From: an uncultured Candidatus Saccharibacteria bacterium
Lineage (GTDB): Bacteria > Patescibacteriota > Minisyncoccia > Phycocordibacterales > DATDWN01
DNA length: 64,000 nucleotides
Assembly (NCBI GenBank): GCA_964586695.1
Contig: CAZPGQ010000001.1
Coordinates: forward strand, 5,350-69,349
Direction of reading: 5' to 3'
The translations under genes were made by a program, and so were the position numbers. Below the pieces are notes generated by a model. The model worked only from the letters and a program-made list of their open reading frames with translations, searched no databases and was not told the DNA's origin. Of the stretch, positions 11,564 through 47,383 are shown piece by piece (position 1 is the first letter of the stretch; each line of letters starts with the position of its first letter).

Positions 11564-11682
11564 AACTTCCAAATTTGGCAAATTTCTTTGTTGCTAGTTT
11601 TATTTTTTCCACGCGCAGTACTAAGTGTACAGCTTGGTCAAAAATAAAACGTCGCGCCTCGAACTTTACTCAAATTGTATAA
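11564..11682 (+). repeat. Intergenic repeat element, copy A. It begins immediately after the murJ stop codon.
   Basis: Starts AACTTCCAAATTTGGCAA and ends ACTCAAATTGTATAAG, with an internal GTAC-TAAGT-GTAC hairpin. Alignable with the copies at 13522, 47267 and the partial copy at 46422. Confidence 0.5.
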
Positions 11683-11721
11683 GTTTTATGAATTCTAGTT
11701 TTTGTGCTTTAATGTAGACCA

Positions 11722-13521
11722 ATGGAAAACATAAGGAACTTCTCAATCATCGCCCATATAGATCACGGAAAATCTACTCTAGCAGACAGAATGCTCGAGA
11801 TAACGGGTACTATAGAAAAACGCAAAATGCAGGATCAGGTTCTGGACTCTATGGAGCTGGAAAGGGAAAGGGGTATCACCATAAAGATGCAACCCGTTCG
11901 AATGAAGTATAAACACGAGGGAAAGGACTACATTTTGAACCTTATCGACACTCCTGGTCACATAGACTTTTCGTATGAAGTTTCTCGCGCTCTAAAGGCT
12001 GTGGAGGGCTCTATTTTGCTCGTGGATGCGACTCAGGGAGTCCAAGCTCAAACACTTACAACCCTTGGAATGGCTCGGGAAACAGGTCTAAAAATTATCC
12101 CTGTATTGTCCAAAGTAGACTCACCACTGGCTCGTGTAGAAGAGATAAAAGCTGAGGTGGTAAAGCTATTAGACTGTGACCCGAGTGAAATATTGGAGAC
12201 ATCTGGAAAGACTGGAGAGGGCGTAGCAAATCTTTTGGATGAAGTAATAAAGAAAATCCCAGCACCAACACCGATAGAAGGAAATACATTTAGATCTCTT
12301 ATTTTTGATTTTAAATATTCAACGCACAAAGGTGTTATCGTTTTTATCCGTGTGATGTCCGGTTCTGTTTCCAGAAATAATCAACTTATTTTCAAAGTCG
12401 CAAAAGAAACTTTCAACTCTATCGAAACTGGAATATTTTCTCCGGATGAAGTTCCTGTAGAAAAACTAAGTGCGGGGGAGATAGGATATATCGTGACTGG
12501 AATAAAAGAACCAGGTATTGCATCTGTTGGAGATACAGTCGCATCACTAAACGACACAAACCCACCACTTCACGGATATATGTTGCCGAGACCTGTTGTG
12601 TGGGCATCTATCTATCCAGAAAGTCAGGATGACTTTACTACACTCAAACAATCACTTGGAAAACTAAAACTTTCTGACTCATCTTTTACATTTGAAGAAG
12701 AGTCATCTGGTGCACTTGGACGTGGTTTCCGTTGTGGATTTTTGGGAATGCTACACCTCGAAATAATCACAGAGAGGCTGCACCGCGAATTTGATCTAGA
12801 CCTTGTGGTGACAATGCCAACTATCACGTATGAAGTTACATACAAAGGTGGCCCAAAGTCTGGTAAGACAGAAATAATATATTCACCATCGTATTTTCCT
12901 GACGAAGGACTTTTGAGTAACATCAGGGAGCCTTGGGTAAACTGTACTATTATTACTCCATCAAGATTCCTTCCGAACCTTATGCCTCTTTTCTACGATC
13001 ACGAGGCGGAGCTACAAGACTCTGAAAACTTTGGAGGGGATAGAACAAGACTTGTTATGAAAATGCCGTTGCGAGAGTTGATGCGAAACTTTTTCGATAA
13101 ACTAAAAAGTGCATCTAGTGGTTTTGCATCTATGTCGTATGAGATAGAGGGAATGCGAGATGCTAACGTCGTGCGTATGGATATATTGGTTGCAGACGAG
13201 GTGATCCCAGCATTTTCAAAAGTTATATCAAGACGAATAGTAGAAGAAGAGGCAAAGTCGTCTGTTGAGAAACTACATAAAATACTTCCACGACAAATGT
13301 TCGTTATGAAAGTTCAAGCGAAAGCATTGGGAAGAATTATATCTTCAGAAACAGTAAAGGCATTTAGTAAGGATGTGACTCAGCATATGTACGGAGGAGA
13401 TATTACTCGAAAGATGAAACTACGAGAAAAGCAGAAGAAGGGAAAGAAGAAGATGAAAGAGAGGGGGATGGGGACAGTCGACATTCCACACGACGTTTTT
13501 TTGAAGATGATGCGTAGCTAA
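11722..13521 (+). CDS. lepA: Elongation factor 4 (LepA)
   Basis: NIRNFSIIAHIDHGKSTLADRMLE G1 motif, DTPGHIDF, the GTPase domain and a LepA-type C-terminal region. 599 aa. Confidence 0.9.
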   Translation: MENIRNFSIIAHIDHGKSTLADRMLEITGTIEKRKMQDQVLDSMELERERGITIKMQPVRMKYKHEGKDYILNLIDTPGHIDFSYEVSRALKAVEGSILLVDATQGVQAQTLTTLGMARETGLKIIPVLSKVDSPLARVEEIKAEVVKLLDCDPSEILETSGKTGEGVANLLDEVIKKIPAPTPIEGNTFRSLIFDFKYSTHKGVIVFIRVMSGSVSRNNQLIFKVAKETFNSIETGIFSPDEVPVEKLSAGEIGYIVTGIKEPGIASVGDTVASLNDTNPPLHGYMLPRPVVWASIYPESQDDFTTLKQSLGKLKLSDSSFTFEEESSGALGRGFRCGFLGMLHLEIITERLHREFDLDLVVTMPTITYEVTYKGGPKSGKTEIIYSPSYFPDEGLLSNIREPWVNCTIITPSRFLPNLMPLFYDHEAELQDSENFGGDRTRLVMKMPLRELMRNFFDKLKSASSGFASMSYEIEGMRDANVVRMDILVADEVIPAFSKVISRRIVEEEAKSSVEKLHKILPRQMFVMKVQAKALGRIISSETVKAFSKDVTQHMYGGDITRKMKLREKQKKGKKKMKERGMGTVDIPHDVFLKMMRS

Positions 13522-13639
13522 AACTTCCAAATTTGGCGATCTACTAGTTAAAAATTCAAAAATTTTCGTCGCAGTACTATTTGTGCTGCTTCTCATATTT
13601 TTGAATTTTTAACGTCGCATCTCATCCAAATTATGAAAG
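13522..13639 (+). repeat. Intergenic repeat element, copy B. It begins immediately after the lepA stop codon.
   Basis: AACTTCCAAATTTGGCGA ... TTCGTCGC, then the hairpin GCAGTAC-TATTT-GTGCTGC, then CTCATATTTT ... ACGTCGCATCTCATCCAAATTATGAAAG. It is followed at 13677-13708 by a perfect 11-bp-stem hairpin AACGGTCAGCC/GGCTGACCGTT. Confidence 0.5.
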
Positions 13640-13705
13640 TTCTAGAATTTAATTCAGTTGTATTGTATATAACAGGAAACGGTCAGCCGTTTCCTTGGCT
13701 GACCG

Positions 13706-13957
13706 TTAGATAATTTGAACTCGGCTCTCTGTGACCCTGATCAGCCCGATAAGCTTCACTTCCAGTAACAGTGGGCTTGAATGTGTCCAGATGTAAGCGA
13801 GGTCCTCCGCATGTTTCTTCGCACTTTCATCTTCATGAAACGCGGTCAATCGTTCCTCTTGCACCCAAGGAGCTTTATCCTTGAGTATTCCGAAGAACGA
13901 CCACCTACTTGGTTTTGGAGTTATCTCGAATCTTGCGATGTAGCTGATCATCCACAC
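13706..13957 (-). CDS. Hypothetical 83-aa protein at the distal end of the yebC-ruvC transcription unit, in a locally GC-elevated patch
   Basis: The ORF starts 23 nt downstream of ruvC on the same strand and ends at the strong hairpin at 13677-13708. Its composition is more GC-rich than its neighbours. No recognisable family, so it may be non-coding. Confidence 0.3.
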   Translation of the reverse strand: MWMISYIARFEITPKPSRWSFFGILKDKAPWVQEERLTAFHEDESAKKHAEDLAYIWTHSSPLLLEVKLIGLIRVTESRVQII

Positions 13958-13980
13958 TCTCCTTTAAATATATAATCATA

Positions 13981-14454
13981 TTATCTCTGTATTGCAAAGT
14001 GGGTGAGGCCGATGGCTATTGCGTCGAATTCGTCGTCGCTGCTTTTTTTACTATCTACAACAATTAATTTTTTGACCATGTCGATGATTTGTTTCTTCTC
14101 GCTTCGTCCGTAACCCGTGATAGCGATTTTCACTTCGTTTGGTGTGTATTCAAAAATAGGCAGTCCTGATGAACTCCCAGCGTAGAGGATAACTCCACGT
14201 GCTTCTGCCACAAGCATCGCTGTTTTCTGGTTTCCTGAAAAGAAAAGTTTTTCCGTCGCTAGTGCCTCCGGTTTATACTTTTTAATTATTTCTTTTATTC
14301 TATTTCCAATAAGAGCGAGTCTCTCATTGTGGGGGAGTTTGGCAGAAGTCTTGAAACACTCAGAAAAAACCAAAGTCTCATTTTGGTTTTTTTCCTTATC
14401 GATTATTGCAAGTCCAAGTCTTTCATAACCAGGATCTATTGAAATTATTTTCAT
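13981..14454 (-). CDS. ruvC: Holliday junction resolvase RuvC
   Basis: MKIISIDPGYERLGLAIID N-terminal catalytic motif. 157 aa with RuvC-like layout. Confidence 0.85.
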   Translation of the reverse strand: MKIISIDPGYERLGLAIIDKEKNQNETLVFSECFKTSAKLPHNERLALIGNRIKEIIKKYKPEALATEKLFFSGNQKTAMLVAEARGVILYAGSSSGLPIFEYTPNEVKIAITGYGRSEKKQIIDMVKKLIVVDSKKSSDDEFDAIAIGLTHFAIQR

Positions 14455-14658
14455 ATTAGTATTTTACCATGTACGAATGCTGAATAGTTTTTATAGACCT
14501 GCACAGGAAATTAGAAAACAACGACGAACGGAAAGAAGCCTGAAGCATTGTTTGAACGATAGTGAGTTTTGCGAGAAGGCTCTGGAGTGAGGACGATTGT
14601 TTTCTTGATTTCCGAGCAAAGCAAAACCCCAACAGGGGTTTATGCGTGTCTGTTAAAA

Positions 14659-15188
14659 CTATTCAGCATTCGTGTATACATCATTCACCTCATCATTTTC
14701 CTCTAACTCGTCAATTAGTGCTCCAAGTTTTCCCCCATCTTCCTCTGATAGGGGAACGGTTGATGTTGGAATCCACTCCTCTCCAATATTGTGTGTGAAT
14801 GCCCAGCTAGCCGCGCCAACTCCAGCCATGGCACAGTCATGTCTCGCTAAAATAGTTTTGATTTCTTGGTTCGCTCTGTTTTTTGCATCTGTTAGAGCTT
14901 CGATAATCATCGCACATCCACCTGGTCCGTATGCTTCGTAAACAATCATTTCAGTCTCGCCAGCTTCTGCTGACTTTTTGATTGCACGTTCAATGTTGTC
15001 GTTCGGAACATTCATTGATTTTGCTTTCTCTATAGCGGCCTTAAGTCCAGGTGAAGAAATGTTTCCTCCAGCTTTTTTTGCCTCTACTGAAATAAGTTTT
15101 ACCATCTTGCCGAAGATCTTTGACTTTTGACCATCAGTCTTCTCTTTCTGTCTCTTTATTTTTGACCATTTATTGTGTCCACTCATAT
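14659..15188 (-). CDS. yebC: YebC/PmpR family DNA-binding regulator
   Basis: MSGHNKWSKIKRQK...AGGNISSPGLKAAIEKAKSMNVP is the typical YebC N-terminus. The start is set at the internal Met (MSGHNKW) rather than the upstream extension listed in the ORF track. Confidence 0.8.
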
Positions 15189-15525
15189 GGCCAATTGTAC
15201 TCAAGTTATACAAAAAATCAAAGTTGATTATTTTTTGGGAGTTGCTAGACTGTTTTCGGCTGTTCTTTTGCACGAGGAGAACCGCTAATCCTTGAGGAAA
15301 GGAGGACTCGCTTCATGATCGACGAGGATCTGTTCGCGCTGTTCACCTAACCCTGCGGCGACCCAGAGGCCGGGTATGGGATCAAGGGTGAGCCCGGCAG
15401 CGCTCTCGTGCAGCGCACAAACAAACCGGAGACGGACTAGTATCCGTCAGGTGAGGAAGGCCTCACTTAACACATGGAGGATTGAATTAGAGCGGAGGGA
15501 CTGACATGTCCCTCCGCCTTAACTT

Positions 15526-16539
15526 TTATAAAAGAGTTTTTGGAGAGAGACCAAGGTGCTCATAACCAGAAGTTGTAACGGTTCTGCCTCGAGGTGTTCT
15601 GTCTAGAAAACCAAGTTGAATGAGGTATGGTTCATTGAACTCCTCGATAGTTGCTTGTTCTTCTGACATTGCTGCTGCGAGTGTGTTGAGACCAACGGGT
15701 CCACCAGAAAATTTATTTATAATAGTGTGCAGTATGTCACGGTCAGCAGGTGAAAGTCCTACGTGGTCTATGCCCAAAAGTTTCAAAGCTTCATCCACGG
15801 ACTCTTTTGTTAAGTCAGTTTTATTTACCTGAGAATAGTCTCGCGCACGTTTCAAAAGATAGTTCGCTGTTCTGGGTGTGTATCTAGATCGTTTTGCTAT
15901 TTCTTCGCCAGCTTTTTCATTGAGTTCGATACCAAGAATTTTTGATGATCTTTCTATAATTTTTTCGATTTCTTTGTTTGTGTAAAATTCAAGTTTAAAT
16001 ATTCCTCCAGAGAAACGACTTCGAAGAGGGGAGGAAATCATCGCGATTCGAGTTGTTGCACCAATGAGGGTAAACGGTGGGAGTTCCAGCTGTATTGTCC
16101 TCGCGCTCGGTCCTTTGCCAATAATAATATCGAGTGAACCTGACTCCATAGCAGGGTAGAGGACCTCCTCGATAGTTTTGTTGAGTCTGTGTATTTCGTC
16201 TATAAAAAGTATGTCCCCAGCAGAGAGGTTTGTGAGTATAGAAGCTAGGTCGCCGACCTTTTCTATTGCTGGCCCACTTGTTACTTTCATCTGTGCATTT
16301 ATCTCTTTTGCAATAAGGTGGGCAAGAGTTGTCTTACCCAAACCAGGAGAGCCGTAAAATAGTATGTGCTCTGGTGGATGATTTCTTTCTTTTGCAGCGG
16401 TCAGCAGAATCTGTAAATTTTTTTTGATATTTGACTGACCGATATATTCATCCCAACGACTAGGGCGTAGGGTAGTATCGAGAAAAAGTGCGTCTGTATC
16501 GACTGAGTCTTGTGTTTTTTTCTTCGGCTTTGTATCCAT
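15526..16539 (-). CDS. ruvB: Holliday junction branch-migration ATPase RuvB
   Basis: Walker A GSPGLGKTTLAHLIA, the LFIDEIHRL sensor region and the RuvB C-terminal winged-helix region. 337 aa. Confidence 0.9.
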   Translation of the reverse strand: MDTKPKKKTQDSVDTDALFLDTTLRPSRWDEYIGQSNIKKNLQILLTAAKERNHPPEHILFYGSPGLGKTTLAHLIAKEINAQMKVTSGPAIEKVGDLASILTNLSAGDILFIDEIHRLNKTIEEVLYPAMESGSLDIIIGKGPSARTIQLELPPFTLIGATTRIAMISSPLRSRFSGGIFKLEFYTNKEIEKIIERSSKILGIELNEKAGEEIAKRSRYTPRTANYLLKRARDYSQVNKTDLTKESVDEALKLLGIDHVGLSPADRDILHTIINKFSGGPVGLNTLAAAMSEEQATIEEFNEPYLIQLGFLDRTPRGRTVTTSGYEHLGLSPKTLL

Positions 16540-16578
16540 GGAGATAATTATACTATATAGGGGTGTTTAACAAGGCTA

Positions 16579-16677
16579 TTGACAAAAAAATCTTTGTATG
16601 CTAAACTACCAGTCTCAATAAGTTTGATTGAGTTTTCGTTGAAAAAGGCAGTTTAAGTTCACCTTCGGGTGATTTTA
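16579..16677 (+). ncRNA. Candidate small RNA with its own promoter and terminator in the pilB-ruvB intergenic region
   Basis: TTGACA at 16579-16584, 17-nt spacer with TG, then TAAACT at 16602-16607. The predicted ~64-nt transcript has a CTCAAT-AAGTTTG-ATTGAG hairpin. It ends with the terminator hairpin TCACC-TTCG-GGTGA plus TTTT at 16659-16676. No ORF lies on this strand. Confidence 0.3.
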
Positions 16678-16966
16678 TAAGCTCCAAAATATAAATCTCT
16701 AAGCAACTAAGCGTTTTGCGTTTACGAGTGTTCCTGCGAGGACGATTTGGTTATTACCTTGTGTAATATCTGCATCTATCCTTTGCGAAATACTTAGCTT
16801 TTGGTATCGATTATTAAAAGTGTTGCTTAGAGATTTATGCTTTGGAGTTTTTTGTTACTCCTATGTTTAATTATTCACACAAGGGGAGTCTTTAGCAAGG
16901 GGATAACTCACTGAGCCACAAAATTCACACTCTCGGCAATCTTGATTTTTTAAATTTGGTCAGTTG

Positions 16967-18643
16967 CTACTCTTTCTCAATATCTATCACTCTTTTTAGT
17001 TCGTCCATTGTCGTAATTCCTTTCAAAACTTTTAATATTCCATCTTGTCGCAGATCAAGTAGTCCTTGTTTTTCTGCTATTTTTTTAATATCACGTTCAC
17101 TAGCATTTTCTCGCACAACAAGTTCTATATCGTAATCCATTTTTATTGCTTCGTGTATTCCTGTTCTTCCTTTGAATCCTGTCATATTACATTTTTGACA
17201 TCCAGTCGATTGCCATATGTGTGTAGTGTCTATGTCCTTAAGATAATCTTTATCTGATATTGTGCTTACAATATCGTCGATAGTTTTTTTATCACCACCT
17301 TCAAGAGTGATTTGTTTTTTACAATCAGGACAAAGTTTTCTTACAAGTCTTTGTGCCATGGCTAGGTTTATTGCAGAAGATATGATTTTTGCATCAACTC
17401 CAAGGTCGATAAGACGTGGGAATGTTCCTGCTGCTGTATTTGTGTGGAGAGTAGAAAACACAAGGTGTCCAGTAAGAGCAGAGTTTATAGCAATACCGGC
17501 TGTTTCATCGTCTCTTATTTCACCAACCATTATCACATCTGGGTCTTGTCGTAGGGCACTGCGTAGACCTTCTGCGAAGCTGTAATTCTTTTTGTCGTCT
17601 GTTTGGGTTTGAACTATGCCAGGTAGATGGTACTCAATAGGGTTTTCTATTGTAATTATTTTTATTTCCGGCGTATGAATTTTTTTAAGCAATGCGTATA
17701 GTGTTGTTGTTTTTCCAGATCCCGTTGGCCCTGTTAGAAGTACCATACCATTTGGTTTTGATGTTTCGTGGAAAATAACTTCAAGAATTTTTGGATGAAT
17801 ACCAAGTTCCTCGAGTGGAACAGAAATCGCATCTGGGTTCAAAACTCGGAGCACGACAGAGTCATTGTATGCACCAGGCAGTAGGGAAGTTCTGATTTCT
17901 ATTTCACTCTTTGGTAGTTTAATACTAAAGCGACCGTCTTGTGCACCAGAAATATTTAACTTTAGATTTGAAATAAGTTTTATTCTAGAAAGAAGTAGTT
18001 TGTATGTATCCAAGTCGAACTGAAGTATTTCTGTCAGCATTCCATCTAGTCTGTATCGCAAAGTCACATAGTCTTCTTCTGGCTCGAGGTGGACGTCTGA
18101 AGCGTTTGTAGCAAGAGCTCCAGCGATTATGATTTCCATAATTCGTGAAATTCGGTAACTCTTTTTCATTTGTAAAACATCGCCGATTAGGTTCTGTACG
18201 TCTGGTATTGTGTGAACTTGTGCGAGGAATTCCGTGATCTGTTCGTTAGAAATATCCAAAGCTCCAGACTTTGTCTCAAAGGAGTATGAAAGGTCCTTGT
18301 ATCTTTCCCAAACTTTTTTCAAACTGGTTTCTGAAACCATGTAGACTTCTGGCGTATAACCTTTTGCTTTAATTTTTTCTATAGCTTCGACAGTTTTCGG
18401 ATTTTGTGGCGCCAAAGCTCCAACGCTCACGATTTTATTTACTTCATTGAATACTGCTACATTAGCTTCTCTTGATTCTACTTCATTAAGGATTCGAAGC
18501 GAGTCTATATCTAGTGGGGTAACAGTAAGATCGGCATAGGGTACACCATATTTTGATGACATTGCTTGTGCCAGACCCTCTTCCTCTTGTTTCCGAAGTT
18601 CATCTACTCGTTTATTCTGTTTTTCTTCGTCAAATATAACCAT
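16967..18643 (-). CDS. pilB: Type IV pilus / type II secretion assembly ATPase (PilB/GspE family)
   Basis: Walker A LLTGPTGSGKTTTLYALL, GEIRDDETAGIAINSALTGHLVFSTLHTN, a C-terminal tetracysteine motif (CPDC...CQKC) and an N-terminal T2SE_Nter-like domain. Start set to the ATG at 18643; the track start is a GTG. Confidence 0.85.
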   Translation of the reverse strand: MVIFDEEKQNKRVDELRKQEEEGLAQAMSSKYGVPYADLTVTPLDIDSLRILNEVESREANVAVFNEVNKIVSVGALAPQNPKTVEAIEKIKAKGYTPEVYMVSETSLKKVWERYKDLSYSFETKSGALDISNEQITEFLAQVHTIPDVQNLIGDVLQMKKSYRISRIMEIIIAGALATNASDVHLEPEEDYVTLRYRLDGMLTEILQFDLDTYKLLLSRIKLISNLKLNISGAQDGRFSIKLPKSEIEIRTSLLPGAYNDSVVLRVLNPDAISVPLEELGIHPKILEVIFHETSKPNGMVLLTGPTGSGKTTTLYALLKKIHTPEIKIITIENPIEYHLPGIVQTQTDDKKNYSFAEGLRSALRQDPDVIMVGEIRDDETAGIAINSALTGHLVFSTLHTNTAAGTFPRLIDLGVDAKIISSAINLAMAQRLVRKLCPDCKKQITLEGGDKKTIDDIVSTISDKDYLKDIDTTHIWQSTGCQKCNMTGFKGRTGIHEAIKMDYDIELVVRENASERDIKKIAEKQGLLDLRQDGILKVLKGITTMDELKRVIDIEKE

Positions 18644-20122: not shown

Positions 20123-20273
20123 AATGTTATAATGCTAGAGTAATAAAAACTTCTTTCTCAACATATCCTTTTTGGAGCACGCATAATTTGGGGGCTCCAA
20201 ATTTGCTCGCTCTCGGCTCGACAGCCTCCGAGAGTCTCCAAAAAGAATATGATTTCGAAGAAGTTTTAAGCAT

Positions 20274-24630: not shown

Positions 24631-24706
24631 GCGCCCATAACTCAGCTGGTAGAGTAGCTCCCTTTTAAGGAGAAAGTCGCAGGTTCGATCCCTGCTGGGC
24701 GCACCA
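24631..24706 (+). tRNA. tRNA-Lys (anticodon TTT), CCA encoded
   Basis: Hand fold: acceptor GCGCCCA/TGGGCGC, D arm ACTC-AGCTGGTA-GAGT, anticodon stem-loop GCTCC-CTTTTAA-GGAGA, T arm GCAGG-TTCGATC-CCTGC, discriminator A, CCA. Confidence 0.85.
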
Positions 24707-24748
24707 ATTAAAAAATCCCTGTAATGGGGATTTTTTAATTGGTGCGCC
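24698..24748 (+). repeat. Perfect palindrome with 22-bp arms overlapping the tRNA-Lys 3' end. Its inner part acts as an intrinsic terminator.
   Basis: GGCGCACCAATTAAAAAATCCC-TGTAATG-GGGATTTTTTAATTGGTGCGCC. The left arm contains the last 9 nt of the tRNA. Confidence 0.6.
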
Positions 24749-25951: not shown

Positions 25952-26452
25952 TTGCCGGATATGACAAAAGGGAAGACTGTAGAAAAAGAGATTGCTGTTT
26001 TGCTTCACGACATACGTTCAACACATAACGTGGGCTCTATTTTCCGCACAGCAGATACACTCGGAATAAATAAAATATACATTTCGGGTTACACTCCGAC
26101 TCCATTGGATAAGTTTAGTCGACCAAGAAAAGACATAGCTAAAGTGGCACTGGGTGCAGAGAAAACTATTTCTTGGGAGTATATAGATGATCCAAAAAAA
26201 CTTTTGAAAAAGTTAAGTAAAGAAGGTTTCCAGATTATTGGCGTAGAGCAGTCAGAAGATTCTGTTGATTATAAAAAAGTAAAAATAGAAAACAAAGTTT
26301 TGTTTATTGTTGGAAATGAAGTTTCGGGGATGGAAAAAGATATGCTTAAACTTTGTGATGTAGTAGCAGAGATACCACAAAGAGGGGAAAAGGAATCGCT
26401 GAATGTTTCCGTGGCTTTTGGTGTTGCTTTGTTCAGAATGCTTAATTTATAA
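25952..26452 (+). CDS. SpoU/TrmH family RNA 2'-O-methyltransferase
   Basis: HNVGSIFRTADTLGINKIYISGYTP is the SpoU motif. C-terminal IGNEVSGM ... LNVSVAFGVALF. Confidence 0.75.
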   Translation: MPDMTKGKTVEKEIAVLLHDIRSTHNVGSIFRTADTLGINKIYISGYTPTPLDKFSRPRKDIAKVALGAEKTISWEYIDDPKKLLKKLSKEGFQIIGVEQSEDSVDYKKVKIENKVLFIVGNEVSGMEKDMLKLCDVVAEIPQRGEKESLNVSVAFGVALFRMLNL

Positions 26453-26573
26453 ACCCTTAAATCTGGATGAAGTTCGAGGAAAAATGAGAAAATGCGAGGA
26501 GCCTTACTCAGATGTAAGGTGACGAGAATTTTTGAAATTTTGACAATGAAATTCGCCAGATTTAGGCGTTTAT

Positions 26574-27470
26574 CTAGTACTTATATTCATCTACTATCTT
26601 TCCTTCTTCATCTAGGAGAACAATATCTTCTCTAGAATTTTTCCACAAAGTCTCGCTTCTCTTTAGGAAAATTCTCCATTCATTCTGATAAAAATCCTTA
26701 TCATTTTTGTGTGTATCTACACAAGCGGGGTAGTTAATTTTTTTGTAAATAAAGTCTGTGCACTCTACGCTCCACTTTGATGATCCTGCTGGTAGTGGGT
26801 CTGTTTGTGTTTTGCATGAAGACATTGAATCTATAAAATCAAAACAGGAATCATTGTAGCCAGTTCTTGGTATGTTTGAAATATTTTCTTTGCTCGGTGA
26901 AGGACAGTATCCACCAATATAAGGTGTAAAAGTTTGAAATTGGTTTAAGTAGCCAGAACATTTGTTCAGTTTGAAATTGACTCCGTTCGGTGATATTCCT
27001 GTGTTTATATATATAGTATCATTAGCTGACATATAGATATCTTGTTCTGGGTTAACTGTTCCAGCAAAAAATAAATACGTACCTTGTGGTATTTTTACAC
27101 TGTTTCCAGTTGAACGACTTTTTAATGTCCAGCCAGTTATTTTTACAGGAGATTTCAAGCTGTTGTTTGATCGTATAACTGCATATTCTTGTGAAGCTTG
27201 GTTGCCTCGGGTTATATAGGATAAATCAATTATATCTTTGTACTTTGACTCGTATTTTTTTGCTTCCTCTGCTGAGACTTGTTTTTTAAGTTCTTCAACC
27301 TTGTATTGAGTATCATTTATCTGTCTTTGAATGTCAGCTTGTTTCTGTTCTGGGGTAACTGGTCCAACTGAGAAAAGTCCACCACCATTGGTGCCTTTTG
27401 ACCCGCCATACATTAATACAGCAAGTATTACTAATATAACCACCATACCCGTGTTACTGTCTTTTCCCAT
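26574..27470 (-). CDS. Hypothetical secreted/membrane-anchored Cys-containing protein
   Basis: N-terminal TM helix (MVVILVILAVLMYGG), then a coiled region, then a beta-rich region with several Cys. Confidence 0.45.
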   Translation of the reverse strand: MGKDSNTGMVVILVILAVLMYGGSKGTNGGGLFSVGPVTPEQKQADIQRQINDTQYKVEELKKQVSAEEAKKYESKYKDIIDLSYITRGNQASQEYAVIRSNNSLKSPVKITGWTLKSRSTGNSVKIPQGTYLFFAGTVNPEQDIYMSANDTIYINTGISPNGVNFKLNKCSGYLNQFQTFTPYIGGYCPSPSKENISNIPRTGYNDSCFDFIDSMSSCKTQTDPLPAGSSKWSVECTDFIYKKINYPACVDTHKNDKDFYQNEWRIFLKRSETLWKNSREDIVLLDEEGKIVDEYKY

Positions 27471-29024: not shown

Positions 29025-29288
29025 ATGCCAATAACAAAGTCAGCTAAAAAAGCTCTACGCGGTTCTGAAAAGAAACGATCTTTCAACATAAACAAGAAAG
29101 AGCTAATTAACAAAGCAGTAAAAAAGGTAAAGAAACTAGTTGCCGACAAGAAGGTAAAGGAGGCTATGGCTATGATGCCAGAGGTTCAGAAGATACTAGA
29201 TAAGTCAGTAAAGACAGGACTTTTGAAACTTAACACAGCTTCAAGAAAGAAATCTCGAATCGTAGCAATGATAAAGAAAGCAAAATAA
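29025..29288 (+). CDS. rpsT: 30S ribosomal protein S20
   Basis: MPITKSAKKALRGSEKKRSFNINKK... is a lysine/arginine-rich S20-type helical protein of 87 aa. The track ORF starts further upstream; the internal Met is chosen as the start. Confidence 0.75.
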   Translation: MPITKSAKKALRGSEKKRSFNINKKELINKAVKKVKKLVADKKVKEAMAMMPEVQKILDKSVKTGLLKLNTASRKKSRIVAMIKKAK

Positions 29289-29290
29289 CA

Positions 29291-29318
29291 AAAAACCTCC
29301 CGCTCGGGAGGTTTTTTG
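29291..29318 (+). terminator. Bidirectional rho-independent terminator
   Basis: AAAAACCTCCCGCTCGGGAGGTTTTTTG. Confidence 0.65.
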
Positions 29319-29353
29319 TTATAAAGAGTTTTTTATGATATTTTTGTTTTATT

Positions 29354-36809: not shown

Positions 36810-37226
36810 ATGGAAATTCAATCACCAGTAAAAGTCCAGGACCGAAAAAACTTTGATATTAGATCAGGGGATACTATTCGAGTATGGCAGAAGATTCAAG
36901 AAAAAGACAAGACAAGACTACAGGCTTTTGAAGGCTTGGTTATTGCAGTAAAGCACGGAAAGGAGGCAGGAGCTACTTTCACAGTTCGACGAGTTGCTTC
37001 AGGAGTAGGGGTTGAGAAGATTTTCCCACTATACTCTCCAATTATCGATTCAATCGAAACTCTAAAGAGATCAAAAGTAAGACGGGCAAAGCTATATCAC
37101 GTGCGAGACAAGGCAGCAAAGGAAATCAGACGACAGATGAGAAATATAAGAGCACTTCCAGACAACACTCCAGGAGTAGAAGAAGTAGTAGAGGCTCCAG
37201 CTACAGAAGAAGCAAAAGCAGAATAA
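36810..37226 (+). CDS. rplS: 50S ribosomal protein L19 (with C-terminal extension)
   Basis: FDIRSGDTIRVWQKIQEKDKTRLQAFEGLVIAVKHGK...FTVRRV is the L19 core. Confidence 0.85.
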   Translation: MEIQSPVKVQDRKNFDIRSGDTIRVWQKIQEKDKTRLQAFEGLVIAVKHGKEAGATFTVRRVASGVGVEKIFPLYSPIIDSIETLKRSKVRRAKLYHVRDKAAKEIRRQMRNIRALPDNTPGVEEVVEAPATEEAKAE

Positions 37227-37230
37227 CAAA

Positions 37231-37256
37231 AAACTCCCAAATGGGAGTTTTTTGTT
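37231..37256 (+). terminator. Rho-independent terminator after rplS
   Basis: ACTCCCAAATGGGAGT hairpin followed by TTTTTTG. Confidence 0.65.
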
Positions 37257-39929: not shown

Positions 39930-39933
39930 ACAT

Positions 39934-40007: not shown

Positions 40008-40078
40008 CTGCGATGAATTTCTCTAAAAAATCCTTACCGAGTAAGGATTTTTTAGTTCTATCTTGGTATACTTTTGGC

Positions 40079-40834: not shown

Positions 40835-40871
40835 ACTAGGTAGAGCCAATCCTGGCTACTGGAGGTTTGTA

Positions 40872-41732: not shown

Positions 41733-41751
41733 TCTTGGGATTGGGGTTGAG

Positions 41752-41785: not shown

Positions 41786-41886
41786 ATAAAAATAATTATC
41801 ACACCTCTATAATTTTATTATAAATAAGATAAGACTATCTTATCTGTGCTATAATGGCCATCTGATTATCAATAGCCATTAAACGA

Positions 41887-42381
41887 ATGTACACAAAAGA
41901 AAATTTAAAAGCTTCTATTACTCACGAAATAAACGTTATCAAGCATTTATTTTCAAAGATACCAGAAGGTCAGATGGGATATAAGCCAACAGAAAAGCAG
42001 AGAACAATGCTTGAGCTTTTGAAATATTTATGTGCTCTTACTCCTGCAACTGTTGAGATGGTCTATACTGCAGAACCAAAAGTTTTTATGGATATTCAGA
42101 AAACAGCAACAGAGACAGTCACAGCAGAAAATTTTATAGAAAAGCTAGATATGGGTGCAACAGAAGCTATGGCTACCTTGGATAAGTTTACAGAAGAGGA
42201 TTTGGCTACAGTTGTAAATATTTTTGGTATGGGAGATAAAACAAAAGGAGTTTACCTTGTTGATACTATTGTAAAATGGCTCGCTGCATACAAACTTCAG
42301 TTATTCCTTTACATTAAGTCATCTGGGAATACTGATATTGGAACTAGTAATGCGTGGGGTGGTTTTGATCAGGAAAAATAA
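41887..42381 (+). CDS. Hypothetical helical protein (possibly DinB/YfiT-like four-helix bundle)
   Basis: All-helical 164-aa protein. A 19-nt perfect palindrome AGATAAGACTATCTTATCT overlaps its putative -35 region at about 41812-41830. The family call is weak. Confidence 0.3.
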   Translation: MYTKENLKASITHEINVIKHLFSKIPEGQMGYKPTEKQRTMLELLKYLCALTPATVEMVYTAEPKVFMDIQKTATETVTAENFIEKLDMGATEAMATLDKFTEEDLATVVNIFGMGDKTKGVYLVDTIVKWLAAYKLQLFLYIKSSGNTDIGTSNAWGGFDQEK

Positions 42382-42387
42382 TTTTGT

Positions 42388-44130
42388 ATGGAAATACTCT
42401 GGAAATACTTAAAAAAATATTGGCAACTTTGTTTGCTTGTTTTGGTGCTAGCAAGTATCAATCAGGTATTTTCTCTACTTGATCCATACATATTTCGGCA
42501 CGTCATAGATAACTATGCGACAAAGTTTGACCAATACACGCTCCCACAGTTTTTCCGAGGAGTATCATATTTGTTACTGCTTGCTGTTGGCGTGGCATTT
42601 GTTTCTAGAACAGCAAAAAACTTCCAGGACTATTATCTAAATAATATTACTCAGAGACTTGGTGCAGAACTGTATGCAGATGGCGTAAAACATTCTCTTG
42701 CCTTACCTTACGAAGTTTTCGAAGACCAAAGAAGTGGGGAAACACTAAACCTTTTACAAAAAGCGAGACTTGATTCAGAGAAACTCATAAACGCGGCAAT
42801 AAACGTGACATTTGTTTCTCTAGTTGGCTTTATCTTCGTGACAATTTACTCGATAAACCTTTACTGGGGGATTGCGGTAGCATATGGTCTAACCATTCCT
42901 ATTATTGGTAGTGTAAGTTATTTTTTGAGTAAGAAAGTAAAGGATATACAACAAAAAATAATAGTAGAGACTTCAGCACTTGCTGGTTCTACAACGGAGT
43001 CACTCCGAAATATTGAGTTAGTAAAAAGTTTGGGACTTTCCGAGCAGGAGATAGGACGACTGAACTTAACAACAAAAAGAATTTTGGAATTAGAATTGAA
43101 AAAACTTCGATATGTAAGAAGTATAAGTTTTATACAGGGAACTATAATAAACTTTCTTCGAACATCTATACTTTTGTTTATGATGGTTTTGGTTTTTCTA
43201 AAGATAATTACATTCGGAGAATTTTTCTCATTGTTTGTTTATTCGTTCTTTATCTTTGGCCCGCTACAGGAAATAGGTACAGTAATAAATACATACAGAG
43301 AAGCAGAAGCATCTTTGGCTAGGTATAAAACCATTTTGGATATGCCTATAGAAAAGATTCCAGAAAACCCAATTGGTCTTGAGAATGTTGAATCAATAGA
43401 GTTTGATAAAGTTTCTTTCTCATATAAAAGTGCAAAAACTACTGCAGTTGAAAACGTTTCTTTCGAGGTAAAGAAGGGTGAGACTATCGCATTTGTCGGT
43501 CCGTCAGGCTCAGGAAAAACTTCTGTAGTAAAACTTATTGTCGGTCTATATAAGCCAGTTTTGGGAAATATTTTGTATAACAAAAAACCAATACAGGATA
43601 TAAGTATAAAAGATTTGCGATCTCAGATTGGTTTTGTGACACAGGACACTCAATTATTTGCCGGCTCAATAAAAGAAAATTTATTGTTTGTTAACCCAGA
43701 CGCAACAGATGAAGAATGTTTAGATGTCTTGCATAAGAGTGCTTGTGATTCACTTTTGGCACGTGCAGACAAAGGTATTGATACTGTAATAGGTGAGGGT
43801 GGGGTGAAAATATCTGGTGGGGAGAAACAAAGACTTTCTATTGCTAGGGCGCTTTTGCGAAAGCCAACTCTTTTGGTTTTTGATGAAGCTACGTCTTCTT
43901 TGGACTCTATAACAGAAGAGGAAATAACAAAAACAGTTCGTGACGTGACAGCAACAAAGGAACATATCACAGTTCTGGTTGCTCATAGACTTTCTACTGT
44001 AATGCACGCAGACAAAATATATGTTTTGGAAAAAGGTGTTGTTGCAGAACATGGAACCCACTCTGACTTGTTGGAACAAAAAGGTTTGTACTACGCGATG
44101 TGGAGACAGCAGATTGGTGAGCGGGTTTAG
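42388..44130 (+). CDS. ABC exporter, fused permease-ATPase (MsbA/ABCB-type)
   Basis: Six-TM N-terminal domain. Walker A GPSGSGKTS, signature LSGGEKQRLSIARALL, Walker B LLVFDEATSSLD and an H-loop. Confidence 0.85.
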   Translation: MEILWKYLKKYWQLCLLVLVLASINQVFSLLDPYIFRHVIDNYATKFDQYTLPQFFRGVSYLLLLAVGVAFVSRTAKNFQDYYLNNITQRLGAELYADGVKHSLALPYEVFEDQRSGETLNLLQKARLDSEKLINAAINVTFVSLVGFIFVTIYSINLYWGIAVAYGLTIPIIGSVSYFLSKKVKDIQQKIIVETSALAGSTTESLRNIELVKSLGLSEQEIGRLNLTTKRILELELKKLRYVRSISFIQGTIINFLRTSILLFMMVLVFLKIITFGEFFSLFVYSFFIFGPLQEIGTVINTYREAEASLARYKTILDMPIEKIPENPIGLENVESIEFDKVSFSYKSAKTTAVENVSFEVKKGETIAFVGPSGSGKTSVVKLIVGLYKPVLGNILYNKKPIQDISIKDLRSQIGFVTQDTQLFAGSIKENLLFVNPDATDEECLDVLHKSACDSLLARADKGIDTVIGEGGVKISGGEKQRLSIARALLRKPTLLVFDEATSSLDSITEEEITKTVRDVTATKEHITVLVAHRLSTVMHADKIYVLEKGVVAEHGTHSDLLEQKGLYYAMWRQQIGERV

Positions 44131-44148
44131 TTGCTGTATAGTTAATGT

Positions 44149-45018
44149 ATGGAAATACTTGTAACTAAAAAATCTAAAGACTACGAACTCTTGGATAGTG
44201 GGGAAGGTCAAAAACTAGAAAGGTACGGTGAGTATGTTTTGGCTAGACCAGACACACAGGCTATTTGGCAAAGGAAATTGGGAAATAGTGAATGGGAAAA
44301 AGCTGATGCTATTTTTTCGCATGGGGCAAAGTCTGGAAAATGGAATGCCAAAGGAAAAATTAAAGAAAATTGGCTAGTTAATTTAAATGATGTTGTTTTT
44401 AGCTTGGAATTATTACCATCAAAACATTTGGGTGTTTTTCCAGAGCAATCTTCTCAGTGGTCTTGGATTGAAGACAAAATTAAATCTAGAATTAGTTCTG
44501 GTCAGAAAGTAAAAGTTTTGAATCTTTTTGGTTATACAGGAGGAGCGAGTCTTGTTTCTGCTAAAGCTGGCGCAGAAGTGGTTCATATCGATGCGTCGAA
44601 ATTTGCTGTAGATTTGGCCCAGAAAAATTTAAAATCATCAAACCTTGGAGAAAAGTCTGTAAGATTTATTGTAGATGACGTGAGAAAATTTGTTGAAAGA
44701 GAAATAAAGAGGGGAAGTAAATATGATGTAGTTCTTATGGACCCACCAGTCTACGGCAAGGGCGCTAAAAAGGAAGTTTGGAAAATAGAAGAAGATCTGT
44801 CTCCATTTCTTTCAAAAATAAGCAAAATAATTTCACCCGACCCACTTGCTATTGTGTTAAACGGTTATGCTTCTGTGTATTCTGCTCAGACATACAAAAA
44901 TTTGTTGGAAAATTCTTTTGGCAGTTTGGGAGGGAAGATTTCGTTTGGAGAAATGTCTATCGAGGAGTCTTCTGGAAGACTTCTTCCGTGCGGTATATTT
45001 GCTAGATGGTCAAAATAA
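44149..45018 (+). CDS. Class I SAM-dependent methyltransferase (RlmI/RlmK-like rRNA methyltransferase fold)
   Basis: VLNLFGYTGGASLVSA SAM motif I, DASKFAV, and YDVVLMDPP motif IV. Confidence 0.7.
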   Translation: MEILVTKKSKDYELLDSGEGQKLERYGEYVLARPDTQAIWQRKLGNSEWEKADAIFSHGAKSGKWNAKGKIKENWLVNLNDVVFSLELLPSKHLGVFPEQSSQWSWIEDKIKSRISSGQKVKVLNLFGYTGGASLVSAKAGAEVVHIDASKFAVDLAQKNLKSSNLGEKSVRFIVDDVRKFVEREIKRGSKYDVVLMDPPVYGKGAKKEVWKIEEDLSPFLSKISKIISPDPLAIVLNGYASVYSAQTYKNLLENSFGSLGGKISFGEMSIEESSGRLLPCGIFARWSK

Positions 45019-45019
45019 A

Positions 45020-45550
45020 ATGAACTTTATAGATATTAATGTTAAGAACTATTTTGATTTAAGTAGAACTTCTGGTCTAACAGAATATATGTATCTTTTG
45101 ACGAATCTTTTTGACGTTTCTGTTTATTCCGCGATGGTCTTTATATGTTTTGCTATTCTAATCTATCTTTTTAGGGGAATCAGATACGCAGTATTTTTTA
45201 TGACGACTTTAGTTTCTACCGCTGTTCTAGTTTATATTCTCAAAGTTATTTTTGACGTCTCTCGTCCTGACGGCGGGGTTATGTTTGCTTTTGGTCAAAG
45301 CTTCCCAAGCTTTCACGCAACTGCTTCCGCTGTATTTTTTATAATTTTGATCTACATTTTCGACGATTATTTGAAGTCATCTGTCCGTTTTGTGTTCAAC
45401 TTTTTATGTATATTTATGATTTTTGCCGTTTCCTTTTCTAGGATTTACCTAGGAGTACACTGGTTTAGTGATGTATTTGTGGGGGTGATTTTGGGTGGAG
45501 CCATAGTCTATGTATCAATAGGTATTTTTAGGAGATTCAGCTTGCTGTAA
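45020..45550 (+). CDS. PAP2 family phosphatase (undecaprenyl-diphosphatase-like membrane protein)
   Basis: KVIFDVSRP (KxxxxxxRP), PSFH (PSGH-like) and SRIYLGVHWFSD (SRxxxxxHxxxD) motifs. Start at the ATG at 45020, just after the upstream stop. Confidence 0.75.
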   Translation: MNFIDINVKNYFDLSRTSGLTEYMYLLTNLFDVSVYSAMVFICFAILIYLFRGIRYAVFFMTTLVSTAVLVYILKVIFDVSRPDGGVMFAFGQSFPSFHATASAVFFIILIYIFDDYLKSSVRFVFNFLCIFMIFAVSFSRIYLGVHWFSDVFVGVILGGAIVYVSIGIFRRFSLL

Positions 45551-45608
45551 GAAAACTGTGATAGAATAGTCTAATACAAATATAGGATTATAATTTAATA
45601 ATATTTTT

Positions 45609-46421
45609 ATGAATGATTTTTTTGAACCAACACAAAAGAGACGTTTTATAAACTCAATTGTGATCGTAGTTATTCTTCTAGGAGCTTTTTTGGCCATAGA
45701 AACTTTGAACTCTATAAGAGAGAACTCTTATATAGGTAAGGGTGTTTATCCAACAAATGTTATAGCAATAAACGGAACTGGAGAAGTTTACGCTATCCCA
45801 GACACAGCTTCATTCTCTTTCTCTGTAGTAGAAGAGGGTAAAACTGTAAAGGATGCACAGGACAAGGCTACAAAAAAGATCAATGCAATTTTGGACGCAG
45901 TTAAGAAGTTTGATATAGAAGATAAAGATATAAAAACTACAGGATATAGTTCATATCCAAAATACGACTATACAAGTTCTGCTTGTGTAAATGGTTATTG
46001 TCCTCCAGGCAAGCAAGTTCTAACAGGTTATGAGGTTAGTCAATCAATAACTGTAAAGGTTAGGGATACAGCAAAGGCTGGTGATGTTCTAACAAAAGTT
46101 GGTGGACTTGGTGCTTCAAATATCTCTGGCTTAGACTTTGTAGTTGATGATATGGATTCAGTTAAGGATCAGGCAAGAGAAAAGGCTGTAGCTGACGCAA
46201 AGGCAAAGGCAAAAGTGCTTTCAAAGACTTTGGGTGTAAGACTAACAAAAGTTGTAAGTTTCTATGAGTCTGGTGATATGCCTATGCCAATGTATTATGC
46301 AAAAGCTGAATCTGCTATGGGTATGGGTGGGGATATGGTCTCTGCTCGACCAGCACCTTCTATTCCAACAGGAGAGAATAAGATAGTTTCTAATGTAACT
46401 ATTACATACGAAGTGGAGTAA
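45609..46421 (+). CDS. SIMPL/DUF541 (YggE-like) periplasmic protein
   Basis: N-terminal TM anchor, then the characteristic Ala/Lys-rich AKAKAKVLSKTLGVRL region and the GYEVSQSITVKVRD motif. Confidence 0.65.
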   Translation: MNDFFEPTQKRRFINSIVIVVILLGAFLAIETLNSIRENSYIGKGVYPTNVIAINGTGEVYAIPDTASFSFSVVEEGKTVKDAQDKATKKINAILDAVKKFDIEDKDIKTTGYSSYPKYDYTSSACVNGYCPPGKQVLTGYEVSQSITVKVRDTAKAGDVLTKVGGLGASNISGLDFVVDDMDSVKDQAREKAVADAKAKAKVLSKTLGVRLTKVVSFYESGDMPMPMYYAKAESAMGMGGDMVSARPAPSIPTGENKIVSNVTITYEVE

Positions 46422-46446
46422 AAACTTCCAAATCTAGCGAATTTCT
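46422..46446 (+). repeat. Partial copy C of the intergenic repeat (5' end only), starting after the stop codon
   Basis: AAACTTCCAAATCTAGCGAATTTCT matches the 5' terminus of copies A, B and D. It is followed by a terminator AACCCCCCGAGGGGTTTTTT at about 46487-46508. Confidence 0.35.
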
Positions 46447-46532
46447 CAGTTTGACTATTTTAGTATTCTAATATACTATATTAATTAACCCCCCGAGGGG
46501 TTTTTTAATAAAGAACCCTCTAATACAAAACT

Positions 46533-46712
46533 ATGAGTCTAATAACATATCTAAAAGATACACAAGGAGAGCTAAAGCATGTCAGTTGGCCATCTAGAAA
46601 TCAGGCTATTGGTTTTACTATTGTTGTAGCGGTTGTTTCAATTTTCGTTTCATTTTATCTAGGATTTTTTGACTATTTGTTGAAACTTGTTATTGGTAAG
46701 TTTGTAATTTAA
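46533..46712 (+). CDS. secE: Preprotein translocase subunit SecE (59 aa; not in the ORF track)
   Basis: MSLITYLKDTQGELKHVSWPSRNQAIGFTIVVAVVSIFVSFYLGFFDYLLKLVIGKFVI has the KxxxxELxKVxWP motif and a single TM helix. Canonical position upstream of nusG. Confidence 0.7.
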   Translation: MSLITYLKDTQGELKHVSWPSRNQAIGFTIVVAVVSIFVSFYLGFFDYLLKLVIGKFVI

Positions 46713-46720
46713 TAATCTCT

Positions 46721-47266
46721 ATGTCAAAACAACAACCACAAGCAGGAAGAAATTGGTATGTTATCCATACATACGCTGGATATGAAAACGCTGTGATGAG
46801 AAATCTAAAACAGCGAATAGAGTCTCTTGGAATGGAAGATAAGATTTTTAATGTAATAGTTCCAACAGAAAAGAAGATAAAAATAAAAGCTGGTAAAAGA
46901 GTAGAAGAAGAGGAGAAGATATATCCAGGTTACATTTTGGTGGATATGATCGTAACAGAAGATTCTTGGTTCGTAGTTAGAAATACTCCAAGAGTTACAG
47001 GTTTCGTTGGTTCAGGTGTTTATCCTGTACCTATCGATCCAAAGGAAGTAGAAGAGCTATTTGGAAGAATGAATGCTCATACAGCAAAACACAAGATAGA
47101 CCTTTCAGTAAATGACTCTATTGTTATTGTTGATGGCCCATTTAAGGACCTTGAGGGTAAGGTAAACGAGGTTGATGAGGAGAGGGGCAAGGTAAAGGTG
47201 CTTGTGGCAATGTTTGGTCGAGAGACACCGGTAGAACTAGACTTCCTTCAGGTGCGCAAGAGTTAG
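46721..47266 (+). CDS. nusG: Transcription termination/antitermination factor NusG
   Basis: WYVIHTYAGYENAV NGN domain and the C-terminal KOW (GPFKDLEGKVNEVDEERGKVKVLV). Confidence 0.9.
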   Translation: MSKQQPQAGRNWYVIHTYAGYENAVMRNLKQRIESLGMEDKIFNVIVPTEKKIKIKAGKRVEEEEKIYPGYILVDMIVTEDSWFVVRNTPRVTGFVGSGVYPVPIDPKEVEELFGRMNAHTAKHKIDLSVNDSIVIVDGPFKDLEGKVNEVDEERGKVKVLVAMFGRETPVELDFLQVRKS

Positions 47267-47383
47267 ACTTCCAAATTTGGCGAACTCCTTGTTGCCAAAT
47301 TGAAAATATTCGTCACCTTAGCACTAACTAAGGCTCCTCATATTTTCAATTTCTCACGTCGGATTTCATCCAAATTATGAAAG
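47267..47383 (+). repeat. Intergenic repeat element, copy D. It begins immediately after the nusG stop and occupies the leader in front of rplK.
   Basis: ACTTCCAAATTTGGCGAAC ... TTCGTCAC, then the hairpin CCTTAG-CACTAA-CTAAGG, then CTCATATTTT ... ACGTCGGATTTCATCCAAATTATGAAAG. Nearly colinear with copy B. Confidence 0.5.

Follow-up and report, generated by a model that had tools for sequence, protein, structure and literature searches.

The stretch of DNA analysed here, 64,000 nucleotides of contig CAZPGQ010000001.1 from an uncultured Candidatus Saccharibacteria bacterium (GenBank assembly GCA_964586695.1; hereinafter the window), contains several copies of an intergenic hairpin of 117–125 bp, with an optional tail of about 18 nt, which lie flush behind the stop codons of protein-coding genes. 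These copies belong to a repeat family that is real and apparently undescribed, and we consider it probable that this family is a non-autonomous mobile hairpin element of Patescibacteria (Paceibacteria-type bacteria of the Candidate Phyla Radiation, hereinafter CPR), which inserts strand-specifically 3′ of TAA or TAG in the slot of transcription terminators. Comparisons of orthologous sites show gain, loss, and overwriting of its copies over short evolutionary times. The genomes of CPR bacteria are tiny, tightly packed, and thought to be poor in repeats; with this family, they would host a miniature element that is ancient, broadly distributed, and still active and that follows an unusual insertion rule, always directly after TAA or TAG, with a single orientation and with no target duplicated.

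A family of stop-codon-abutting hairpins in Patescibacteria

A sequence-only reading of the window had described three colinear copies starting right after stop codons, at positions 11564, 13522, and 47267, and a fourth near 46422 of which only the 5′ end is left. Motif matches and the ends of open reading frames (ORFs) bear this out: exact matches to the 5′ motif CTTCCAAATTTGGC stand at 11566, 13524, and 47268, and one with two mismatches at 46425; the 3′ motif CATCCAAATTATGAAAG has exact matches at 13623 and 47367; and the ORFs end at 11563, 13521, 46421, and 47266, with the element beginning at the following base each time. A pattern made of two blocks had three matches in the window and none in shuffles of it. 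Using a covariance model built from relatives of the element, we recovered exactly four full copies (A, B, D, and E), one of which lies on the minus strand and had been overlooked. Copy A (11564–11688, plus strand, 87 bits), a full hairpin of the 'CCACGCGCAGTAC' subtype, abuts the TAA of murJ (11561–11563), and the ATG of lepA follows 34 nt downstream. Copy B (13522–13644, plus strand, 110 bits), likewise a full hairpin, abuts the TAA of lepA (13519–13521) and has an ortholog in a sister genome (locus L087). Copy D (47267–47383, plus strand, 124 bits) is a full, 'master-like' hairpin that abuts the TAG of nusG (47264–47266). The added copy E (26448–26576, minus strand, 105 bits), seen also by inverted-repeat scan and folding, is full as well; it is flush with the TAG (26576–26574) of a minus-strand gene for an LTD-domain protein, and its far end touches the TAA (26450–26452) of a convergent SpoU methylase gene. 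Finally, copy C (46422–46449, plus strand) is a 5′-end remnant after the stop codon of a SIMPL/DUF541 gene, followed by an ordinary intrinsic terminator. By Pfam, the genes flanking the copies of the initial set encode MurJ, LepA, the SIMPL/DUF541 protein, NusG, and L11. The density of the element in the window is about one copy per 13–16 kb.

The further copies in related CPR genomes that the sequence-only reading had called for were found in number. A scan of species-representative genomes with the two-block pattern gave at least 115 loci, from which the counts for the family in this work are drawn. All but six of the loci listed, the six being chance matches, come from metagenome-assembled genomes of Patescibacteria, with Paceibacterota, Zambryskibacteria, Campbellbacteria, Wolfebacteria, Moraniibacteria, Uhrbacteria, Minisyncoccia, and Parcubacteria as the host groups among the matches listed. 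An nhmmer search of these loci recovered 132 full and five partial copies in 52 genomes, with several copies per genome. A few copies sit on contigs binned under other phyla, namely Nitrospira sp. (L046, L054, and L090) and Alphaproteobacteria (L008 and L108, which are identical across the copy and its flanks); these contigs are mostly short, the longest being about 15 kb, and may be mis-binned Patescibacteria DNA. The family could accordingly serve as an aid to contig binning and as a marker for strain-level variation. In a complete Campbellbacteria genome (L023), a solo 3′ end (AAATTTCATCCAAATT, 1140–1155) lies head to head with a full copy (1166–1293), which suggests a partial duplication or a nested insertion.

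No carriage by viruses was seen in 2.9 million viral contigs or phage records. Searches against Rfam returned only RNase P and tRNAs for the whole window at gathering thresholds, only chance matches for its 11–21 kb portion at E ≤ 1, and no match in six related loci. Our search of the literature on palindromic repeats or miniature inverted-repeat transposable elements (MITEs) of CPR bacteria or Parcubacteria found no description of such an element, in agreement with the initial statement that no described element matches.

Each copy is a single rod with covarying arms

Every copy folds as one imperfect end-to-end hairpin (folding z-scores –3.5 to –9.7), a rod with an A+T-rich stem of about 55 bp and conserved internal loops. 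Conservation within the family runs from (T)(A)(A/G)AACTTCC to GAAAGTTT, and the flanks outside these limits are unconserved. The outer arms are fairly conserved (ACTTCC...GGAAGT), with AAC and GTT conserved at the base of the stem; the interior comprises a GCGAACTCC/GGATTTCAT segment that is conserved, an A+T-rich stem that varies in sequence between copies yet remains paired, a conserved internal loop (TCGTCA/CTCCTC), and a variable apical hairpin. The variable but paired central hairpin of the sequence-only reading is thus supported by strong compensatory variation, but it is only the middle of a hairpin that takes up the whole element. The ends, which had been described as direct-repeat-like, are in fact the arms of an inverted repeat, in which ACTTCCAAATTTGG is paired to CCAAATT(A)TGAAAGT; their resemblance to direct repeats comes only from the 10-bp palindrome CCAAATTTGG, which is present in both arms.

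In an alignment of 58 diverse copies, 89.3% of the cells at paired positions are standard pairs and double changes are seen in 29 of 40 pairs (311 cells), whereas none of 500 column shuffles matched any observed measure of pairing or covariation, and sliding the 3′ partners by 1–3 columns lowered the pairing to 33–53%. The forward-strand alignment gave similar figures. For instance, one stem pair is seen as C-G, U-A, A-U, and G-C, and a change from T to C in AAATCTGG is matched by one from A to G in CCAGATT in 25 of 26 cases. The covariation that had been put forward for checking is therefore firmly present; minimum-free-energy folding, for its part, is too noisy to place the end of the helix relative to the stop codon. 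Two other candidate features of the rod were set aside: a small reverse-strand ORF (ATGAAATCCGA...), whose changes covary with the opposite arm, and a CIRCE-like half-site in the apical loop (TTAGCACT), which is missing from copies upstream of dnaK.

Copies are gained, lost, and overwritten at orthologous sites

Contigs with a NusG protein identical to that of the window present the nusG–rplK site in two states. Seven of the 10 contigs shown, with 92.3% nucleotide identity to the window in nusG, are empty: a 45-nt spacer (GTTGCAATTTGGG...) extends from the TAG, which is directly followed by GTTGCAA, to the ATG. The remaining three, the window's own genome and two contigs of a 97.8%-identical relative, are filled, with 135 extra nucleotides placed exactly at the junction and no target duplication. 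These consist of the 117-nt rod and an 18-nt tail (CCTCATGGTTGTGTGGTG, 47384–47401, plus strand) that is absent from the empty site; hence, the hairpin of copy D ends at 47383, as had been proposed, but the inserted DNA reaches 18 nt further. Tails of this GTGGTT type stand behind approximately 20% of the copies of the family. The filled junction reads TAG on its left, with GGTG abutting GTTG on its right and no TA on that side. The right-hand border is a promoter-like site for rplK (TTGCAA-N17-TAGAGT, 47403–47431, plus strand; by consensus only), which is seen as TTGCAA-N17-TA...T in filled and empty states alike. The comparison of related strains that had been suggested thus shows, at this site, an empty state differing from the filled one by exactly the 135-nt insertion.

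Among 74 orthologous nusG–rplK loci taken more widely, the element is present in two, the two closest relatives; the spacer is mostly 16–25 nt long, and other loci carry different insertions there. In different genomes, the same nusG site is occupied by elements of type I or type II. When the window is compared with its 97.8%-identical relative, identity is only 75% in the rod but 98% in the next 63 nt. The nusG copy of the window is at the same time 91–93% identical to copies in unrelated genomes; therefore, the rod has been overwritten by conversion or re-insertion. Elsewhere, one Zambryskibacteria genome has four copies at different loci that are 93–94% identical, which shows a recent burst, and the copy C remnant after the SIMPL gene is common to related strains and has lost more of its sequence in one lineage. 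Filled and empty orthologous sites, two subfamilies at one site, a decaying remnant, and a burst of near-identical copies together uphold the mobile-element reading that had been offered as one of two possibilities.

At orthologous sites across species, the identity at four-fold degenerate positions is 0.25–0.45 (near saturation), as against 0.7–0.93 for the elements; random pairs of non-orthologous elements have a mean identity of 0.71. Given the overwritten rod at nusG, we attribute much of this persistence to homogenization towards a master sequence.

The insertions might alternatively be those of a classical MITE moved by a DDE transposase of the IS630/Tc1 type (akin to Correia or RUP elements), which enters TA and duplicates it. 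The inverted arms with their fairly conserved ACTTCC...GGAAGT would fit such an element, as would the symmetric TA...TA flanks of 32 of 121 copies, although these also simply extend the palindrome, and two to three of the four young copies in one genome have A(C/T)TTCC...GGAA(A/G)T bracketed by TA on both sides. However, a statistical search for target-site duplications found no excess of direct duplications at any offset, and the strain-resolved junction has no TA on its right side. Further, a strong orientation bias and a strand-asymmetric fold are unexpected for cut-and-paste transposition, the outer stem covaries, and no DDE transposase was seen in the fetched loci. We accordingly regard this alternative as improbable.

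Other small insertions, too, have a hot spot behind the nusG stop in related CPR genomes (spacer loci L117, L121, L125, and L177; L137 and L174; L129, L143, L158, and L183; and L119, L127, and L182). Among them are an ORF that by eye resembles one for a four-helix-bundle ('23S rRNA IVS') protein, with AAGTT-rich repeat flanks, and elements with the inverted ends GAGCG.AGCGACTATA.../...TATAGTCGCTC.GCTC, with or without an ORF that by eye is GIY-YIG-like; several unrelated hairpins are also found at this spot. Past the terminator that follows the SIMPL gene, L197 and L202 share an 83-nt hairpin-containing insertion (about 2725–2808) that is absent from the window and from other strains and is a strain-level polymorphism of a different element.

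Placement behind TAA and TAG

The preference for sites behind stop codons noted in the window extends to the family: in 104 of 132 copies, the stop codon of a same-strand ORF overlaps the 5′ end of the element or lies a few nucleotides upstream of it. The adjacent stops are TAA or TAG only; TGA accounts for none of the 99 stops within 14 nt of an element, as against 9% of the stops in the same loci. Where the stop lies slightly upstream, a second TAA or TAG often stands at the element border. On the other side, the distance to the next start codon is broadly distributed (median 48 nt), and convergent ORFs that end flush at the other end of the element are few. Housekeeping genes precede the element, among them tuf (seven genomes), nusG (six), ftsW/rodA, lemA, gap, murJ, a PilC-like gene, and an FKBP gene.

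A group of six genomes (L013, L035, L045, L072, L074, and L079) has the element about 25 nt upstream of the start of a divergent dnaK, with the better-folding strand (see below) codirectional with dnaK and a TTGAC(A/T)-N17 promoter for the gene on the opposite side after the element. In three of these six copies, a TAG stands at the 5′ border where no ORF ends; therefore, the trinucleotide TAR (TAA or TAG) is part of the element or of its target and not merely a stop codon under selection.

Unequal folding of the two strands

The reverse strand, which is antisense to the upstream gene, has a more stable fold than the forward strand in 113 of 116 copies; the mean energies are –50.4 and –36.9 kcal/mol, respectively (Wilcoxon p of about 10⁻²⁰), and the consensus fold energies are –60.7 and –48.6. 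The reverse strand has 3.7 G.U pairs per copy as against 0.8 in the forward strand. In the reverse frame, 432 cells are G.U and 101 are A.C, covarying pairs included, and G.U stands between A-U and G-C at variable pairs. A mutation bias linked to transcription would give the opposite strand asymmetry. The better fold and G.U excess of the reverse strand therefore indicate that an antisense single strand, be it RNA or DNA, is under selection for folding.

One conceivable source of such a strand is a gene for an antisense small RNA (sRNA) of about 125 nt, transcribed from the best-folding strand convergently on the upstream gene and doubling as a bidirectional terminator. Besides the superiority of the reverse strand and the excess of G.U at covarying pairs, the six genomes in which that strand is codirectional with dnaK, about 25 nt upstream of its start, are consistent with this. 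Yet we looked for a –10/–35 signal at a fixed distance on the antisense-promoter side of the copies and found none, and the estimated spacer to the next gene, a lower bound as it uses the earliest possible start codon, is ≤21 nt in about a quarter of the copies. Moreover, presence/absence turnover and the decayed remnant ill fit a conserved sRNA gene, and no Rfam family matches; consequently, we deem an sRNA gene very improbable.

The same asymmetry recalls the attC sites of integrons, folded single-stranded DNA recombination sites whose bottom strand is recombined. Like them, the element lies right after ORFs in a fixed orientation, its bottom strand has the more stable fold, the base of the stem carries AAC and GTT as conserved terminal triplets, the fold is kept while the inner sequence varies, and no target is duplicated. 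In contrast to attC, its borders (TA(A/G)AAC...GTT(T/C)TA) do not fit RYYYAAC/GTTRRRY, and its P1 and P2 segments are paired continuously, with no unpaired central spacer. In addition, the copies lie scattered behind housekeeping genes whose order is conserved and do not form a cassette array, and no integrase is encoded nearby. Of the alternatives considered here, a recombination site of this kind appears the hardest to credit.

Occupation of the terminator slot

In many ortholog pairs of filled and empty sites, the empty genome has a canonical terminator (A-tract, stem, and T-tract) right after the stop codon. In the filled genome, the element takes the place of this terminator, sometimes with a terminator after it and sometimes without one. 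The consensus promoter of the next gene lies further downstream at the compared sites. Being situated at the end of a transcription unit, the element must be transcribed with the 3′ end of the upstream message, where it may act as a terminator-like or stabilizing hairpin; its own architecture (A-tract, hairpin, and TTT(T)) is terminator-like. At 42 of 103 filled sites, a heuristic scan detected a hairpin resembling a terminator in the 110 nt that follow the element, but this home-made finder has an 18% false-positive rate inside ORFs and is too unspecific to quantify replacement.

Such observations raise the alternative that the family is primarily functional for the host as a module of the sense mRNA 3′ end, that is, a portable terminator, attenuator, or exonuclease barrier that follows directly on the stop codons of highly expressed genes and is kept by selection, with mobility as a mere means of spread. 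It would explain why the element occupies the slot of its relatives' intrinsic terminators, between the stop and the next promoter, with a terminator-like layout and covarying stems, why in several species it recurs behind genes such as tuf, nusG, gap, and murJ, and why its identity at orthologous sites far exceeds that of four-fold degenerate positions. Against this, the mRNA-sense strand is the one that folds worse, having A.C where the antisense strand has G.U, and the T-tract of 3–4 nt is shorter than the 5–6 nt of genuine terminators in the window. Likewise, an intrinsic terminator would have a short G+C-rich stem followed by at least five U, whereas the rod is approximately 55 bp long, A+T-rich, and ends in TTT(T). 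Most relatives lack the element at the corresponding site, some filled sites may keep an ordinary terminator (going by the above scan with its high false-positive rate), the remnant decays, and the body of the element is overwritten between 98%-identical strains. On balance, we consider a primarily host-functional module unlikely. The related earlier proposal of a structured RNA at mRNA 3′ ends accordingly holds with respect to the structure, which covaries, but the antisense location of the better-folding strand speaks against a simple 3′-UTR RNA in the sense orientation. In practice, rods in terminator slots are liable to be annotated as structured 3′ UTR RNAs or as terminators.

With genuine bidirectional intrinsic terminators, the element shares the slot after the stop codon and the A-tract/hairpin/T-tract symmetry; it is set apart by a stem of about 55 bp with conserved loops, a T-tract of 3–4 nt, and conservation across bacterial classes. 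Ordinary terminators of this bidirectional kind are found in the window at 9825–9859, 24698–24748, 29268–29339, 37225–37256, 40023–40055, and 47875–47934.

A candidate mode of movement and the search for an enzyme

We propose that the element would insert strand-specifically 3′ of a TAR trinucleotide, and that in compact genomes the stop codon itself might be the only TAR where such an insertion is harmless. Insertion directed by TAR would explain why the element sits flush, points in one direction, is never adjacent to TGA, and duplicates no target. The intermediate in its movement or copying could be single-stranded DNA or RNA; the antisense strand (with respect to the upstream gene) would be the one used, since it has the more stable fold tolerant of G.U (or G.T). 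An enzyme encoded elsewhere in the genome might recognize the rod and its conserved loops, and gene conversion or re-insertion might then hold the copies near the master sequence. If the insertion rule is mechanistic, it would point to an activity, so far undescribed, by which these uncultured bacteria insert or copy single strands.

The neighborhoods of the copies consist of housekeeping genes only and show no enrichment of transposases or integrases. A full-length autonomous element with the same ends was looked for in about 1.5 Mb of fetched loci, and none was found. Two fetched loci did contain transposases of the Y1 type resembling RAYTs, the transposases associated with repetitive extragenic palindromic (REP) sequences; these are very common in CPR bacteria (6276 homologs). 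We inspected seven RAYT-like genes at six loci (L064, 6244–6900; L012, 35–727; L207, 2560–3270; L208, 10001–10705; L209, 10001–10666; and L210, 10001–10675 and 1316–1972), and each is bracketed by its own short REP palindrome (e.g., GTGGAAGACGGTCTTCCAC). In L207 and L208, the RAYT-like gene lies within the dnaK–grpE region. One REP flank in L064 (6923–6939, CTTCCACAATTGGCGCA) resembles the 5′ end of the element at 14 of 17 positions.

Several points weigh against a mobile element with the proposed insertion rule. There is, first, the lack of a mobilizing enzyme in the neighborhoods of the copies; of the seven RAYT-like genes, none is flanked by the element, and the profile hidden Markov model of the family has no match in L207–L210. 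Second, only one insertion junction is resolved at the strain level; an exact look-up with RuvC for further such junctions returned the same strain only. Third, the TA...TA flanks of about a quarter of the copies mean that a TA-duplicating transposase may be responsible for some insertions. Fourth, persistence at tuf, nusG, murJ, and other sites could reflect purifying selection at the level of the host, that is, a function. Lastly, the analogy with transposons of the IS200/IS605 group (see below) is imperfect: their active strand carries the 5′ target, which would be the sense strand here, yet it is the antisense strand that folds better.

A more far-reaching version of the mobile-element reading is conceivable, though we hold it only tentatively: the element might be a hairpin that seeks TAA or TAG and spreads via its folded antisense strand, by means of either a class of enzymes so far unlinked to such elements or templated conversion alone, with CPR bacteria tolerating it or using it as a portable boundary of transcription units. 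Stop-codon seeking by way of the antisense strand would, if true, constitute a new insertion logic for bacterial miniature elements.

Relationship to known miniature elements

A close parallel is furnished by REPINs and REP elements, which are mobilized by RAYTs (Bertels and Rainey, 2011, PMC3116915; bioRxiv 10.1101/2021.07.10.451892). Both are multicopy, extragenic long hairpins of about 100 nt that persist across related genomes with long-conserved sequence and fold, are mostly inherited vertically with occasional duplication, presumably act as single-stranded DNA, and leave no obvious target duplication. Unlike REPINs, which pair short REP palindromes, the element is one continuous rod in which only CCAAATTTGG recurs at both ends; also, the RAYT-like genes found here are flanked by unrelated short REPs and never by the element. 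To our knowledge, flush placement in one orientation behind TAA or TAG is not a described property of any REPIN.

The ERIC (IRU), Correia (CREE/NEMIS), and RUP/BOX sequences are intergenic repeats of proteobacteria and streptococci that can affect the processing, termination, and stability of mRNAs. The element resembles them in being an imperfect palindrome of 100–150 bp in transcribed intergenic DNA that is non-autonomous and conserved across genera, but it is restricted to CPR bacteria. Correia and RUP elements duplicate TA and occur in both orientations, whereas the element has no duplication, a strong orientation bias, and a strand-asymmetric fold.

With regard to insertion, the element is similar to the IS200/IS605 transposons and their miniature derivatives (PATEs), which insert strand-specifically 3′ of a short target without duplicating it, have ends recognized by way of hairpins, and have their orientation set by the target strand. 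Similarly, TAA or TAG, and never TGA, stands at the 5′ border of nearly all copies of the element, the orientation is fixed, and there is no duplication. The IS200/IS605 transposons differ in having separate sub-terminal hairpins in place of a single end-to-end rod, and no matching TnpA was found. The element thus shares features with REPINs, ERIC/Correia/RUP elements, IS200/IS605 transposons, attC sites, and terminators, but fails at least one defining feature of each; in a broad sense, it falls among the bacterial interspersed palindromic mini-elements.

Other repeats and RNAs in the window

A degenerate relative of the element had been suspected at about 20156, but the family model gives this region only 12 bits (E = 2.2), and the region is part of another dispersed family of hairpins. 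The hairpin in question (20146–20267; –46 kcal/mol on the plus strand and –52 on the minus strand) is the second long one of the window; it has similar ends (AAAACTTC...GAAGTTTT) and sits between tsaE and polA, 23 nt from the stop codon of the former and 6 nt from the start codon of the latter. Relatives of it are present in L114, L043, L019, and L004, the last of these 73 nt from a copy of the main element. A further inverted-repeat structure, 172 nt long (16679–16850) and flanked by two minus-strand genes, has arms of 29 nt with 90% complementarity, a homolog in L059 (5454–5630), and no Rfam match. The window additionally encodes an RNase P RNA of bacterial class A (4183–4533, 120 bits) and seven tRNA genes, at 24631, 29354, 31388, 34975, 35243, 37294, and 39935.

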